From Chloroflexota bacterium (lineage in GTDB: Bacteria; Chloroflexota; Anaerolineae; B4-G1), in the NCBI GenBank assembly GCA_011048615.1, contig DSDT01000198.1, forward strand, positions 1 through 40,952: 40,952 nucleotides of DNA, read 5' to 3'. The translations under genes were made by a program, and so were the position numbers. The notes beneath the pieces were generated by a model, which was not told the DNA's origin, ran no database searches, and saw only the letters and a list, made by a program, of their open reading frames with translations. How positions within the stretch are numbered: the stretch's first letter is position 1; each line of letters begins with the position of its first letter. Shown in pieces: positions 28,419-34,079 of this stretch.

Positions 28419-29291
28419 TCAGGCCATCTCTGCCTGGAGAGCTTGGAACTGCTCTGCTCGCAGCTTTTCCAACGGTTGATCCACCAGCGGGCCGGCTTGG
28501 AGGGCCGGGATCTGTTCCTCGTAGGTCGGGAGCGGCTCACTGCGGTAAACGATGCCTATGGGGATGCGGTCGCCCCACTCGAACGCTTTCTGCCAAGCGG
28601 CCGGGCGGTCGCTGGGATCGTAACCCTCCTCTTCCTCCAGCTTGTAGACCCGTTCGTTGTAAAAGTCGTAGGCATAGTTCCGGTTAAAGGTCACGCAGGG
28701 CTGGAGGACGTCCACCAGGGCGTAGCCGGGGTGCTGCAGCGCCTCGCCGATCAGCCAGGCCAGGTGTTTTAGCTCGCCCGAGTAGCCCCTGGCGACGAAG
28801 GTGGCGCCGGCAGTGATGGCCAGGGCCAACGGCTGCACTGGCTGCTCGATGGCGCCATGCGGCGAGGTCGGCGTGCGCTTGCCCTGCTCGCTGGTGGGAG
28901 AGTACTGGCCCTTTGTCAGGCCATAGATGCGATTGTCCTGTACCACGTCCACAATGTTCAGATTGCGCCGCACGGTGTTGAGAAAGTGGCTCAGCCCTTC
29001 TCCATAGCCATCCCCGTCGCCGTGGACGGCAATGATCGGCAGGCCGTGGTTGGCGAGACGGGCGCCGGTCGCCACGGTCAGCGTCCGTCCATGGAGGGTG
29101 TGGAACCCGGTTATCTTCATATAGTGGGGCAGTTTGCTGCCGCAGCCGACTCCCGTGACGATAAAGGCCTGGTGGGGGGCGATGTTTTGTTCGACCAGCG
29201 CCATTTTGATCCCGTTGAGGATGGCGTGATTGCCGCAGCCCGGGCACCAGGTGGGTCGTTCCTTTCCTTCAAAGTCTTGGCGCGTCAACAT
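28419..29291 (-). CDS. korB: 2-oxoacid:ferredoxin oxidoreductase beta subunit (TPP-binding)
   Basis: PTWCPGCGN, GVGCGSK, HTLHGR, GDGD, YGLTKGQYSPT, VLQPCVTFN. Confidence 0.92.
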   Translation of the reverse strand: MLTRQDFEGKERPTWCPGCGNHAILNGIKMALVEQNIAPHQAFIVTGVGCGSKLPHYMKITGFHTLHGRTLTVATGARLANHGLPIIAVHGDGDGYGEGLSHFLNTVRRNLNIVDVVQDNRIYGLTKGQYSPTSEQGKRTPTSPHGAIEQPVQPLALAITAGATFVARGYSGELKHLAWLIGEALQHPGYALVDVLQPCVTFNRNYAYDFYNERVYKLEEEEGYDPSDRPAAWQKAFEWGDRIPIGIVYRSEPLPTYEEQIPALQAGPLVDQPLEKLRAEQFQALQAEMA

Positions 29292-29292
29292 C

Positions 29293-31044
29293 TTACACCT
29301 CCTCCGGCAAATGAGCTAGAATGTACTCGGGCGTAAAGGGTCGGCCATCGTAGCGGCGAATTGCACCGGCGACCGAGCGGCCGGTTCGGGTGTGTAGCAA
29401 GGTCTCCAGTTGCCCGGTGCTGTTTCCCTCCACAACGATGGTCCGGTTCGTCTCGGCCAGAGCGGCCTGGGTAGCGGTCAGCGGGAAGGGATGGAGCGCG
29501 CCAAAGTGCAGCAGGTTCGCGCGCCGGGGCTGCTCGGCGTTGAGCCGGTCCACCGCCTCTCGCAGCGGGCCGTAGGTGGAGCCCCAGCACAGCAGGGTGG
29601 TCTCGGCCTCCTGCGGGCCGTACCAGGTTGGCTGCGGCACGTCCTCCTCGGCGCCCTGCATCTTGCGGGCCCGTTTGTTCACCTGGGCCACTCGATTGGC
29701 CGCATCCTCGCTGATGGCGCCGTATTCGTCGTGCTCGTTGGCGGTGGTGGTCCAGACTGCATTGGGGTGACCTGGCACGGCGCGGGGCGAGATGCCGGAC
29801 TCGGTGAACTTGAAGCGGCGGTAAGGCTCTTCCAAACTGTCCAACTGTTCTTTGGTCAGCAGTTCTCCCCGGTCTATTTCCACCGCGTCAAAGTTCAGCC
29901 CGTCCATCTCCAGGGTGCGGTACGCGACGGCCAGATAGTGGTCGCTGAGGACCAGGGCCGGGGTCTGGTACCGTTCTGCCAGGTTGAAGGACTGCCATCC
30001 GCTGTCGAACGCCTCCTCGATGGTGCCCGGGGTCAGGATGAAGCGGGGGAATTCGCCCTGGGAGGCGTGCAGCATGAACAGCAGGTCGCCCTGCTCGGTG
30101 CGGGTGGGCAGGCCGGTGGCTGGTCCGGGACGCTGGGCGTTGTAGACGACGATGGGGGTTTCGGTGATGCCGGCCAGGCCCAGCGCCTCGACCATCAGGG
30201 AGAACCCGCCGCCGGAGGTGGGGACCAGGGAGCGGGCGCCGACGTAGGCCGCGCCCACAGCCATGTTGATGGCCGCGATCTCGTCCTCGGCGTGTTTGGT
30301 GACGACGCTGTACTCGTCGGCGTGGGCGACGAACCAGTGCAGGACGGGCGAGCCGGGGGTCATCGGGTAGGCCGCGACGAAACGACAGCCGCCAGCCAAC
30401 GCGCCCAGGGAGAAGGATTCGGTGCCGTTGAGGCACAGCCGGGGCGGGGCGTCAGGCACGGCCTCCAGTCGGAAGGGGTATTCCTGCTGGAAAGGGCGCG
30501 AGGCCTCGATGCCGGCCTCAACGACGCGCAGATTGGCATTCACCACGGCTTCCCCTTTGGGGGCAAAGTTATCGCGGATGACGCTTTCCATGTACGCGGG
30601 ATCGAATCCGAGCAGGTTGGCCGCAACTCCCAGGATCACCGTGTTGCGCATCACTGGACGACCTCCCTTTTCCTCGGCCAATGCGGTCAAGGGGACGGGG
30701 AAGAAACTGACGTCGGGGCGGCGCAGGTCGTCGGACAGCTCGTCTTGCTGATCCTGGTCGTAGACCACCGCGCCGCCCTCGACGAGAGTGTTTACGTGCC
30801 GCCGGATCGTTTCCACGTCCAGGGCGAGCAGCAGGTGGATCGGCTCGGCGTGGGAGTAGAGCGGCTGTCGAGCGGCGCGGATGGAGAAAAAGTTGTGGCC
30901 GCCCCGGACGCGGGAGTAATAGTCGGGCAGGCCAAAGACATAGAGGCCGCCGCGTGTCAGCGCTTTGGCGAATCCGGCCCCGCTGGATTCCAGTCCCATC
31001 CCCGCCTCACCGCCGATGCGGATAGTGAGGTCGTTCTGTATCAT
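29293..31044 (-). CDS. korA: 2-oxoacid:ferredoxin oxidoreductase alpha subunit (gamma-alpha fusion)
   Basis: IGGEAGMG, YSRVRGGHN, AYPMTP, EDEIAA, TSGGGFSLMVE, RPGPATGLPTRTEQGDL, WGSTYG, VEGNSTGQL. Confidence 0.92.
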   Translation of the reverse strand: MIQNDLTIRIGGEAGMGLESSGAGFAKALTRGGLYVFGLPDYYSRVRGGHNFFSIRAARQPLYSHAEPIHLLLALDVETIRRHVNTLVEGGAVVYDQDQQDELSDDLRRPDVSFFPVPLTALAEEKGGRPVMRNTVILGVAANLLGFDPAYMESVIRDNFAPKGEAVVNANLRVVEAGIEASRPFQQEYPFRLEAVPDAPPRLCLNGTESFSLGALAGGCRFVAAYPMTPGSPVLHWFVAHADEYSVVTKHAEDEIAAINMAVGAAYVGARSLVPTSGGGFSLMVEALGLAGITETPIVVYNAQRPGPATGLPTRTEQGDLLFMLHASQGEFPRFILTPGTIEEAFDSGWQSFNLAERYQTPALVLSDHYLAVAYRTLEMDGLNFDAVEIDRGELLTKEQLDSLEEPYRRFKFTESGISPRAVPGHPNAVWTTTANEHDEYGAISEDAANRVAQVNKRARKMQGAEEDVPQPTWYGPQEAETTLLCWGSTYGPLREAVDRLNAEQPRRANLLHFGALHPFPLTATQAALAETNRTIVVEGNSTGQLETLLHTRTGRSVAGAIRRYDGRPFTPEYILAHLPEEV

Positions 31045-31068
31045 GAGGGTTCTCCTTGTTGCTGCTGT

Positions 31069-31617
31069 CTATCCGATGAAGAATGGGTATTCTTCGTCGT
31101 CCCACCAGGTGCCATTTTGGGTGAGGTAATTGTGGGTGTTCTGCAGCAGGCGGTAGTGGGCATCCTCCTGTTTCACTAGAAACTCGTAGGCCTGGCGGGC
31201 GTGAGAGTCGTCAGTCTCCTCGGCTCCCTGGGCGTAAATCTCGCGCGAGATGCGTTCGGTCTCCAGTCCGAATTCCAGGGCGGCGATGTCCCCTTGCAGC
31301 GAGACCTCCCGCTCAGGGGTGAAGACGGGCATGGGGTCGGGGGGTTCATCACCCGGCAGATCGGGATTGGCCGGATCCAGGGAAAAGTCGGTCTGCATCG
31401 CCTCATCGTAAGGGATCCAGCCCTGTCCTTCTTCCAAGGCACGATACTCGGCCAGCAGCAACCTGAGGTGATCCTCCTCCTGATTGGCCAGGTCGAGGAA
31501 CATGGCCCGGCCCCGTTCACTGGAGGCCCGTTCGGCGGCCTGGGTGTAAAAGTTGTATCCATCTCGTTCCAGGCTCATGCCACGCCGTAGAATACCTTGA
31601 GGTGTGTTCCAGTCCAT
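31069..31617 (-). CDS. Ferritin-like (rubrerythrin-family) di-iron protein without a rubredoxin domain
   Basis: AAGGAG SD and ATG at 31617; E..GYNFY, LANQEEDH, E....EIY, LVKQEDAH give two ExxH motifs. Confidence 0.85.
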   Translation of the reverse strand: MDWNTPQGILRRGMSLERDGYNFYTQAAERASSERGRAMFLDLANQEEDHLRLLLAEYRALEEGQGWIPYDEAMQTDFSLDPANPDLPGDEPPDPMPVFTPEREVSLQGDIAALEFGLETERISREIYAQGAEETDDSHARQAYEFLVKQEDAHYRLLQNTHNYLTQNGTWWDDEEYPFFIG

Positions 31618-33380: not shown

Positions 33381-33426
33381 GCGTCGCTCCTATAGAGAAT
33401 GGCTGTCCCGTCGCTCTGGTGGTCTG

Positions 33427-33786
33427 CTAGAAGGGTTGTTTTTCCCGTGGACGGCGTTCTGGTATAGGCTGGATCGTTTTCTCACCTCGCAGGACCTCGT
33501 CCGAGACATAGAGCGCGCAGTAGCATGCTCCCCAGTCACGCAGATCGGGGTCGCGGTACTCGCACGGGCAGATGATGTCCCGGTCTTTTTCCTTGTCGCC
33601 GACTGCCAGCCGACAGGGGCAGGCCTGGTATCCATACCGTTCTCGGTTGATCAGCAAGCCCTCGACCAGTCCCCAGGTGAACTCGCGGTTGGGATTGAGG
33701 TGGTAGCCGGTAGACTCGGCCCATTGATCCAGGCTCGCGTACACTTGGTCTATTTTTTCTGGGGGGATGATAATCTCTTTAGTCAT
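33427..33786 (-). CDS. Ferredoxin:thioredoxin reductase catalytic-subunit-like protein (FTRc/FDR)
   Basis: ATG at 33786; [41 protein letters not shown] give the CPC/CPC/CxC motifs of FTR. Confidence 0.9.
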
Positions 33787-33788
33787 CT

Positions 33789-34079
33789 CTATAGCTCCAG
33801 TATCTGTGCCAGTTCCTCGGGCTTGAAGCCCACCACGCTCTGTTCGCCGTCCACCACCACAGTAGGGAAGGATGTCGCCGGGTTCCAACGGCGAACTTGC
33901 TCCACGGCCTCTTCTCGCTCGGAGCCGTGAAGCAGGTCTATGTAGATATAGTCGAATGCCACATCCTCGTCTTCGAGAAATTGGCGCGTCCGTTTGCACC
34001 AGATGCAAGTGGACAGGCCGTAGAATGTGATATGGTGCACTTCGTTCGCGCCGGATACATACCCTCTCGCTTGTACCAT
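33789..34079 (-). CDS. Glutaredoxin/NrdH-like protein (CIWC)
   Basis: [37 protein letters not shown] (cis-Pro), VVGFKPE. Confidence 0.88.

Follow-up and report, generated by a model that had tools for sequence, protein, structure and literature searches.

For their peroxide and disulfide defences, as far as these are known, anaerobes rely on NAD(P)H, either through NADH:rubredoxin oxidoreductase (NROR) and rubredoxin or through thioredoxin reductase (TrxR), and enzymes of the ferredoxin:disulfide reductase (FDR) type show that ferredoxin can feed thiol redox chemistry. Little was found in the open-access literature on the roles and the electron supply of bacterial FDRs. Here, we describe a 40,952-nucleotide stretch of DNA from a Chloroflexota bacterium (Anaerolineae, lineage B4-G1; assembly GCA_011048615.1, contig DSDT01000198.1), referred to as the window at its full length, in which an FDR-type gene belongs to a cluster of eight redox genes that ends with both subunits of a 2-oxoacid:ferredoxin oxidoreductase (OFOR). 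The reading that we favour, with moderate confidence, is that these genes are a compact, probably co-transcribed form of a variable oxidative and thiol-stress island conserved among Anaerolineae, built of three modules, with the OFOR as the likely source of electrons.

Layout of the eight-gene cluster

The eight open reading frames all lie on the minus strand at positions 28419-34079, and their order, the motifs CIWC and CPC/CPC/CYC and the seven gaps between them are as a preliminary description, made from the letters alone, had given them. Families were called with Pfam and NCBIfam against curated cut-offs, and the features of the cluster and its flanks are as follows (aa, amino acids; nt, nucleotides).

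35263-38262 (-): receiver-GAFx3-HisKA-HATPase gene (Pfam)
34133-35245 (-): receiver-HisKA-HATPase gene (Pfam)
33789-34079 (-): glutaredoxin-like protein (Grx), 96 aa, CIWC, methanoredoxin/NrdH-like; PF00462, 40.9 bits, cut-off 22.9
33427-33786 (-): FDR-type ferredoxin:disulfide reductase, 119 aa, CPC/CPC/CYC; PF02943 (FeThRed_B), 78.2 bits, cut-off 22
32649-33380 (-): stand-alone SagB-type protein of the FMN nitroreductase fold, 243 aa; TIGR03605, 156 bits, cut-off 78.4; PF00881, 113 bits
32184-32621 (-): OsmC-family candidate thiol hydroperoxidase, 145 aa, with an extra CxxC; PF02566, 47.3 bits, cut-off 27.5
31696-32187 (-): peroxiredoxin (Prx)-like gene, UxxC (FTUPYC) selenoprotein with the AhpC/TSA fold; PF00578, 97.5 bits, cut-off 26
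32055-32053 (-): selenocysteine (Sec) codon, an in-frame TGA at codon 45 of the Prx-like gene
32017-32034 (-): SECIS-like hairpin CTCGCGC-AGTT-GCGCGAG, about 20 nt past the UGA, recognized by conservation
31069-31617 (-): ferritin-like (erythrin-type) di-iron protein, 182 aa; PF02915 (Rubrerythrin), 43.7 bits, cut-off 22.8
29293-31044 (-): OFOR alpha, gamma and alpha domains fused, 583 aa; TIGR03710, 638 bits, cut-off 483
28419-29291 (-): OFOR beta, thiamine pyrophosphate and [4Fe-4S], 290 aa; TIGR02177, 349 bits, cut-off 262; PF02775; PF12367
28370-28408 (no strand): hairpin with a perfect stem of 17 bp and a loop of 5 nt, flanked by the convergent genes for OFOR beta and methionine adenosyltransferase

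From Grx to OFOR beta, the intergenic gaps computed from the coordinates are 2, 46, 27, -4, 78, 24 and 1 bp; the OsmC stop overlaps the start of the Prx-like gene by 4 nt, and the 78-bp gap presumes translation from the ATG at 31617, a few bases 3' of an AGGAG. A purine-rich ribosome-binding site was present at each gene start inspected. The 17-bp hairpin lies within the 59 nt that separate the OFOR beta stop from the convergent gene and likely marks the end of the transcript; no comparable hairpin occurs in any internal gap of the cluster. A scan for promoters and terminators returned 0 promoter-like sites and no minus-strand terminator, and it missed the OFOR beta hairpin because this hairpin has no T-run. 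The layout fits a single transcription unit, and the eight genes are probably co-transcribed. Upstream, the receiver-HisKA-HATPase gene ends 53 nt before the Grx start, and both signalling genes are co-directional with the cluster. Homologous kinase genes lie directly 5' of Grx in three related loci (L118, L114 and L107), and it is possible that the two signalling genes are regulators of the cluster.

Two samples were used for comparison. The class sample comprised 201 Anaerolineae genomes that were drawn evenly, with close relatives under-sampled; within it, 46 genomes with FDR were compared with 154 without. A species-level scan then covered 80 FDR loci (L numbers) and brought in closer relatives, that is, Anaerolineales and Anaerolineae metagenome-assembled genomes. 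A family was counted as linked when an orthologue lies at most 10 kb from FDR. Neighbour maps were drawn with a custom gene caller and BLAST clusters, and Pfam was run on the cluster representatives. Counts across related loci are not independent, owing to kinship.

The glutaredoxin-FDR couple and the proteins encoded beside it

The second gene had been described as the catalytic subunit of a reductase like ferredoxin:thioredoxin reductase (FTR). Its product does carry PF02943 with the CPC...CPC...C(H/Y)C cysteines, and we refine the assignment to an FDR-type protein that is devoid of the usual rubredoxin domain. It aligns with 4tpu_A (173 aa) at 162.5 bits and with residues 85-192 of 7pwe_A at 127 bits, all cysteines being aligned in both cases, and with the solved plant and cyanobacterial FTR catalytic chains at just 24-26 bits. 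We take 4tpu_A to be the FDR of Methanosarcina acetivorans, though it was deposited as 'Rubredoxin'. The FTR variable subunit (PF02941) gave no match in the genome of the window, which is 92% complete, and a match was obtained in the control genome of Synechococcus. The first gene product has the glutaredoxin-like thioredoxin fold with a CxxC motif; 20 of 21 close orthologues retain C25, and all 21 retain C28. It aligns with 3nzn_A (104.5 bits) and 5cax_A (90.5 bits), both deposited as 'Glutaredoxin', and with residues 6-80 of 7pwe_A (43.6 bits), and it scores below the cut-offs of all NCBIfam equivalogs.

The association of the two genes is very stable. Grx lies directly 5' of FDR in 46/46 close orthologue loci of the class and in 75 of the 80 species-level loci, and in three of the five exceptions FDR is less than 500 nt from a contig end. 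Judged by the titles of their records, the 80 loci come from Chloroflexota, Actinomycetota, Thermodesulfobacteriota/delta-proteobacteria, Spirochaetota, Patescibacteria, Methanosphaerula and Thermoplasmata. Moreover, Grx and the FTR catalytic domain (FTRc) are naturally fused in 7pwe_A (196 aa, 'Ferredoxin-thioredoxin reductase subunit B'), and by this Rosetta-stone argument the two proteins should act as a pair. According to two reviews, FDRs are Fe-S enzymes of archaea and bacteria and kin of FTRc, a thioredoxin of Methanosarcina is the substrate of one FDR, and methanoredoxin belongs to the Grx-like disulfide reductases (PMC6262447, PMC7278568). By the 4tpu_A match and the 7pwe_A fusion, the couple is a known kind of ferredoxin-to-disulfide module, for which ferredoxin-dependent disulfide reduction is predicted.

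The FDR of the window ends at residue 119, without the C-terminal rubredoxin-like domain. This rubredoxin tail (WRCxVCGY...CPICK) is found in 44/44 called FDR orthologues of the class and in 69 of the 80 species-level loci (10 are without it and one is cut by a contig end). The closest FDR relative, in L107 (77% identity), likewise has no tail, and the full-length query found no rubredoxin-like FDR domain elsewhere in the genome of the window. With no rubredoxin domain, the FDR of the window therefore presumably docks its carrier directly. Two kinds of more distant loci were also observed. In L049, L050 and L051 (genomes G193, G005 and G053), distant FTR-like genes from this class have an in-frame TGA at the second cysteine of the first CPC ('...PYCP*') and run on into a C-terminal glutaredoxin-like domain, so that they look like Sec-containing FTRc-Grx fusions. 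In L052-L054 (G116, G150 and G075, of which two are single-contig genomes), genes for Rieske-type [2Fe-2S] ferredoxins lie on either side of a short FTR-like gene and its Grx, an arrangement that hints at a Rieske ferredoxin as donor to the FTR-like protein.

Three of the neighbouring products are members of well-defined families. The OsmC protein has the OsmC fold and the two catalytic cysteines (C52 and C123). C52 and the two cysteines C85 and C88 are kept in 11/11 orthologues and C123 in 10/11, and the extra CxxC is also seen in a solved homologue (9wo1_A, 67.9 bits). The SagB-type protein has the SagB domain and matches 3eo7_A (175 bits). No cyclodehydratase or precursor partner was found among the annotated neighbours in the window or the recurrent clusters of relatives, where no dedicated YcaO search was made in either, and a role of this flavoprotein in the cluster is putative. 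The ferritin-like protein has two E...ExxH di-iron motifs, with E17, E47, H50, E121, E151 and H154 invariant in 24 sequences. The rubredoxin domain of a true rubrerythrin is absent, as neither a Pfam domain for it nor a CxxC pair occurs in the sequence. A paralogue of this protein adjoins a flavodiiron protein (FDP) gene on contig C272 of the same genome.

The fifth gene yields a 163-residue protein with the motif FTUPYC when its TGA is read as Sec. The TGA falls at the identical codon in 23/23 aligned loci, and a GC-rich hairpin follows it by about 20 nt in 23/23 orthologues, with the loop AGUU in 22 of them. The hairpin pair 24-37 is GC in 18 sequences, a compensatory CG in four and broken (GG) in one. 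By folding energy alone the hairpin of the window is not significant (z = -1.45), and an Rfam scan of the window returned a SAM riboswitch and a tRNA only, with no match at this site; support for the hairpin thus comes from its conservation in orthologues. The genome also contains tRNA-Sec, selA, selB and selD. Because the TGA codon and the hairpin are conserved and the full Sec machinery is present, we regard the Sec reading as sound, and the gene has all the marks of a bacterial selenoprotein gene (UGA, hairpin and machinery). The selD gene (G000:C42:1303-2238) itself holds one in-frame TGA, and the selenophosphate synthetase of this genome is probably a selenoprotein as well. Relatives of the protein (E <= 1e-20) occur in 65 of the 201 class genomes, with an in-frame TGA in 68 of 73 among the matches listed, so that a conserved, uncharacterised family of UxxC selenoproteins comes into view.

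Whether this protein is a Sec-peroxiredoxin, as the preliminary description had it, is a separate matter. The Sec decoding and the AhpC/TSA fold stand. The Prx active site does not: the PxxxTxxC motif is missing and the conserved Arg is not aligned, and in an alignment to the BCP structure 2cx3, R41 takes the place of the Prx Pro and U45 that of Thr/Ser, C48 corresponds to the peroxidatic Cys, and the column of the conserved Arg holds P118, with R116 two residues before. The protein is below the cut-off of every NCBIfam model, the best match being the SelL-related redox protein (75.8 bits, cut-off 120). Its peroxidase activity is putative. In the slot after OsmC, this Sec protein occurs in the window and in L114, and a canonical BCP (PKADTPGCT) in L127 and L154.

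Stress islands of relatives and the OFOR subfamily

Large parts of the cluster recur in relatives. Seven of the eight families are co-directional and no more than 10 kb away in four of the 80 loci (L115, L118, L127 and L154), and six of the eight in six more. The order in L118 (kinase, kinase, Grx, FDR, SagB, OsmC, ferritin-like protein, OFOR alpha, OFOR beta) equals that of the window minus the Sec gene, and L114 has Grx, FDR, SagB, OsmC and the Sec protein. Family by family, linkage to FDR was counted in 18 of the 80 loci for SagB, 15 for the ferritin-like protein, 13 for OFOR alpha, 11 for OsmC and one for the Sec protein; these numbers are lower bounds, because many contigs are short. A first-sample impression that SagB, OsmC and the Sec protein are almost never linked to FDR was corrected by this species-level scan. 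One further case may be hidden in a split assembly. The contig of L043 (G008:C185) ends in or just past OFOR alpha, and that of L075 (G008:C87) starts with OFOR beta and has the Sec protein three genes on; the two contigs probably join, in which case FDR, OFOR and the Sec protein would be neighbours in one more genome.

The other genes that recur in these neighbourhoods are informative. They encode a Fur/PerR-like regulator, a Rieske ferredoxin, NROR, rubredoxin, rubrerythrin, desulfoferrodoxin/superoxide reductase (SOR) and FDP; ferritins, a DJ-1-rubrerythrin fusion, an FMN reductase and a small molybdopterin oxidoreductase; cysteine desulfurase, NifU, TusA, a DsrE-like protein and an MBL-rhodanese protein; and MsrA, Usp, encapsulin, glutamate dehydrogenase, a Grx-PDZ fusion and BCP. 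As judged from family assignments, this set is the established oxidative-stress repertoire of anaerobes together with genes for Fe-S repair and sulfur trafficking. MsrA, a classic redoxin client, lies directly 3' of Grx-FDR in L127, L140, L154 and L158, and one gene further in L128 and L131. The genome of the window has a separate island with PerR-like, rubredoxin, NROR and rubrerythrin genes on contig C11.

Several observations on these islands may be recorded in their own right. The close relatives L127, L128, L131, L154, L158 and L140 have in common a supercluster of more than 20 co-directional genes, which begins with FDP, Fe-S assembly, TusA, malate/lactate dehydrogenase, MBL-rhodanese and DsrE-like genes, continues with Grx-FDR, MsrA, glutamate dehydrogenase, dodecin, DUF427, the ferritin-like protein, Usp, ferritin, SagB and OFOR alpha/beta, and ends with OsmC and BCP; in some relatives an encapsulin shell gene lies near it. 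Three recurrent island proteins without a Pfam match are encoded at L040:6393-7505 (370 aa, before Grx-PDZ), L131:14621-14980 (119 aa, between SagB and OFOR alpha) and L111:1782-3044 (420 aa, between SagB and the ferritin-like gene).

The OFOR of the cluster is of the two-subunit type, with fused gamma-alpha and beta subunits and no delta; its alpha subunit matches 6n2n_A (310 bits) and 5b48_A (306 bits), and no gene for a ferredoxin-like delta subunit is adjacent to it in the window. It is the sole copy of this type in the genome, which has three further OFORs. Two of these score above the cut-off of the 2-oxoacid:acceptor oxidoreductase alpha model, one of the two having an OorD-like delta-subunit match below the model cut-off, and the third is VorB-like; the OFOR of the cluster is therefore an extra one of a distinct type. 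A 589-aa frame that is open antisense to OFOR alpha (29410-31179, +) is a shadow of this GC-rich gene and non-coding by the codon model. Orthologues of the OFOR (>=50% identity) are present in 31 of the 46 genomes with FDR versus 18 of the 154 without, a hand tally that is confounded by kinship, and they lie within 10 kb of FDR in 9/46 class loci of five families, besides the window itself, and in 13/80 species-level loci.

The gene context of this OFOR is more telling than its presence. Of 20 OFOR loci without linkage to FDR, 16 show one or more stress-type neighbours, and 12 of these 16 hold a ferritin-like, rubrerythrin, SOR, NROR, rubredoxin, FDP or Grx-PDZ gene. In L096, for example, PerR, rubredoxin, FDP, NROR, rubrerythrin and SOR genes are followed further on by OFOR alpha/beta, Grx-PDZ and two ferritin-like genes. 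As a control, two-subunit OFORs that are more distant but of the same class were mapped at 20 loci. At <=45% identity, a stress neighbour was found in 1/16 only and was weak; at 46-48%, stress neighbours were found in 3/4, each with rubredoxin, NROR, OFOR alpha/beta, Grx-PDZ and a ferritin-like gene. The difference between 16/20 and 1/16 indicates a specific tie between one OFOR subfamily and stress islands, and the gene context of this subfamily points to stress physiology and not to central metabolism. No stress-island-specific OFOR subfamily and no OFOR-FDR-Grx cassette was found described in open-access papers and preprints.

The remainder of the window holds genes of other functions. A SAM-I riboswitch (26975-27076, +; 90.6 bits) lies 5' of an archaeal-type methionine adenosyltransferase gene (PF01941, 455 bits; 27034/27172-28359, +), whose longest open reading frame begins within the riboswitch. 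The family models align from residue 49-51, and the true start is therefore probably near 27172. The interval from the downstream kinase gene to the riboswitch holds a tRNA gene (26801-26874, -; 73 bits), and upstream of the two signalling genes is a leucyl-tRNA synthetase gene (38427-40952, -) that the contig end truncates.

A candidate route from 2-oxoacids to thiol and selenol clients

Our data suggest a model of three modules. In the first, the methanoredoxin-like Grx and the [4Fe-4S] reductase of the FDR type would use single electrons from a low-potential carrier to generate a protein dithiol. The second would consist of thiol- or selenol-dependent clients, namely the OsmC-type hydroperoxidase and the UxxC selenoprotein with the Prx fold, whose slots are taken in relatives by MsrA and the canonical BCP peroxiredoxin. 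The third would pair the di-iron erythrin-like protein with the two-subunit OFOR, which most likely continues to make reduced ferredoxin from a 2-oxoacid under oxygen exposure. Since FDR needs a low-potential donor and OFOR makes one, a connection from OFOR to FDR is the simplest link between the modules. A glutamate dehydrogenase gene, a possible source of 2-oxoglutarate, is part of the island in four loci.

A somewhat unlikely alternative is that the OFOR is co-regulated with the stress island and is not a dedicated electron source for FDR: it could be an oxygen-tolerant replacement for multi-subunit OFORs, or a client that is shielded by the di-iron protein and reactivated by Grx (in relatives, by Grx-PDZ) through a thiol switch. 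A disulfide-based protection is known for the pyruvate:ferredoxin oxidoreductase of Desulfovibrio. The stress context of OFOR loci without FDR speaks for this alternative, as do the three other OFORs of the genome with their one sub-cut-off OorD-like match, and a ferritin-like gene is near OFOR alpha/beta in 9 of the 20 unlinked loci. A further hint comes from the Grx-PDZ fusion gene (about 150-180 aa), which stands directly beside OFOR alpha/beta in many genomes (L037, L039, L040 at 7546-8067, L043, L046, L093, L096 and L208-L210), including 6 of the 20 loci without FDR linkage, and which occurs with or without FDR nearby. The closest solved relatives of the OFOR include the two-subunit enzymes 5b46 and 5b48, whose source organism we take to be an aerobe. 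However, no Grx-PDZ orthologue was found with that query in the 92%-complete genome of the window, and the alternative is compatible with the model of three modules, in that an oxygen-tolerant OFOR would still supply FDR with reduced ferredoxin.

A second alternative, which we consider improbable, is that the Grx-FDR couple serves mainly against reactive sulfur (persulfides and polysulfides) and general disulfide stress, in which case OsmC and the Sec protein would work as oxidoreductases of the thiol-disulfide or selenylsulfide type. In close relatives, Grx-FDR lies just 3' of cysteine desulfurase, NifU, TusA, MBL-rhodanese and DsrE-like genes, one or two genes from the DsrE-like gene, and the thioredoxin-type UxxC motif without the Prx Thr and Pro, like the SelL-related match of the Sec protein, would suit such a role. 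Against it, the window contains no sulfur-trafficking gene, and OsmC, the di-iron protein and the SOR, rubrerythrin, FDP and BCP of relatives are families of oxygen and peroxide defence. The idea that the adjacency is meaningless, a housekeeping 2-oxoglutarate:ferredoxin oxidoreductase having come to lie next to unrelated redox genes, could draw on the single copy of this OFOR type, on fluid gene order, on OFOR loci amid housekeeping genes in two genomes of the same order and on the 15 of 46 FDR-bearing class genomes that have no OFOR orthologue at >=50% identity, but it is very hard to reconcile with an OFOR-stress linkage that recurs over many families in differing gene orders, with the contrast to the distant OFORs of the same class, with the kinship-confounded co-occurrence with FDR, and with gaps of 24 and 1 bp before a sole strong hairpin after the last gene.

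A number of findings weigh against the model of three modules and have to be set beside it. First, no other locus among the 80 has all eight families together, and neighbour maps of other genomes may contain miscalled genes, the gene caller being crude and trained on the window only. The preliminary description had taken the cluster for one functional antioxidant unit including the OFOR; recurrent linkage and the stress context of the OFOR support this idea, with the absence of the full set elsewhere as a point against it. Its view that the OFOR should be linked to the other genes in related genomes holds in the loci counted above, whereas the closest OFOR alpha orthologues of the class sample (G066, 76%; G015, 75%) are on contigs other than those of FDR, and two OFOR loci of the window's own order lie amid SMC, asparaginase and RsfS genes. 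L107, the locus with the closest FDR relative, has only Grx-FDR-SagB, after which unrelated genes begin. Second, the Sec protein has a thioredoxin-type UxxC motif and does not conform to canonical peroxiredoxins; many genomes that have no FDR encode it, it is linked to FDR only in the window, L024 and L114 among the class and species loci, and the recurrent neighbours of 20 of its orthologues in the class are photolyase, hydrolases and transporters, not FDR. Third, the cluster is indeed without a ferredoxin gene, as had been noted, the ferredoxin motif CxxCxxCxxxCP occurring in no frame of the window, and the flow from OFOR through ferredoxin, FDR and Grx to the clients is, in each transfer step and in the identity of the carrier, a prediction from gene content. 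Elsewhere in the genome, nine small open reading frames have the ferredoxin Cys motif; some of them adjoin the genes of the other OFORs and may encode delta subunits of those enzymes.

The terms 'self-contained' and 'NAD(P)H-independent', which had been applied to the cluster, go beyond what the genome supports. Besides the three further OFORs and the separate island on contig C11, it encodes a canonical NADPH-dependent TrxR (405 bits) beside thioredoxin, a system that could serve the same clients; the two checks named in the preliminary description, for a separate OFOR and for such a TrxR, thus both turn out positive. In most relatives, which combine NROR and rubredoxin with an FDR that bears the rubredoxin domain, a route from NADH through NROR and rubredoxin to FDR is conceivable, and hence the network need not be independent of NAD(P)H; both points count against the model as well. 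We therefore offer the stronger version only tentatively, as a possibility: that in Anaerolineae a stress-time OFOR and FDR-Grx run a pyridine-nucleotide-independent antioxidant and repair network, in which electrons would pass from a 2-oxoacid through OFOR, ferredoxin, FDR and Grx to OsmC, BCP, MsrA and the UxxC selenoprotein. Ferredoxin would also feed the di-iron protein as another sink, and Grx, or Grx-PDZ in relatives, might in turn keep the OFOR reduced and active. Together, the cluster and its relatives provide a testable candidate path from 2-oxoacids to thiol and selenol peroxidases and to methionine-sulfoxide repair, which may help to explain the oxygen tolerance of the widespread and mostly uncultured Anaerolineae.

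Comparison with known systems places each module. With the FDR of M. acetivorans, the FDR of the window shares the CPC/CPC/CYC catalytic domain, the Tyr where plant FTR has His and the lack of a variable subunit, and a small CxxC redoxin partner is encoded next to it; unlike the archaeal enzyme, it is a bacterial protein of 119 residues without a rubredoxin domain, and its gene clusters with those of OsmC, a selenoprotein, a di-iron protein and an OFOR. With plant and cyanobacterial FTR it shares PF02943 and the cysteine pattern for a [4Fe-4S] cluster beside a redox disulfide, and it differs in having CYC instead of CHC, in having no variable subunit that could be found, in the low alignment scores and in a partner that is glutaredoxin-like and not a WCGPC thioredoxin. 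Where 7pwe_A is a fusion, the window has two separate genes 2 bp apart; no open-access paper or preprint that names this entry was found. The Sec protein resembles the BCP/PrxQ peroxiredoxins in its AhpC/TSA fold, in C48 at the peroxidatic position and in its slot after OsmC, and differs from them in having Arg and Sec for the Prx Pro and Thr and no aligned conserved Arg, and among the SelL-related UxxC selenoproteins it remains below the NCBIfam cut-off.

The islands of PerR type known from Clostridium and Desulfovibrio, which run on NAD(P)H through NROR and rubredoxin, contain the same families (NROR, rubredoxin, rubrerythrin, SOR/desulfoferrodoxin and flavodiiron protein) that surround Grx-FDR and OFOR in the relatives, and no description of such an island with an FDR-Grx couple or an OFOR was found in open-access papers and preprints. 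The OFOR itself is built like the solved two-subunit enzymes (6n2n/6n2o and 5b46/5b48), with fused gamma-alpha and beta subunits and no delta, and its subfamily is set apart from them by a near-constant neighbourhood of stress genes. Taken singly, the components are familiar, from FDR-redoxin couples and OsmC to Prx-like selenoproteins, erythrin-type proteins and two-subunit OFORs; their recurrent combination, like an OFOR subfamily that is tied to stress islands, was not found in open-access papers and preprints.

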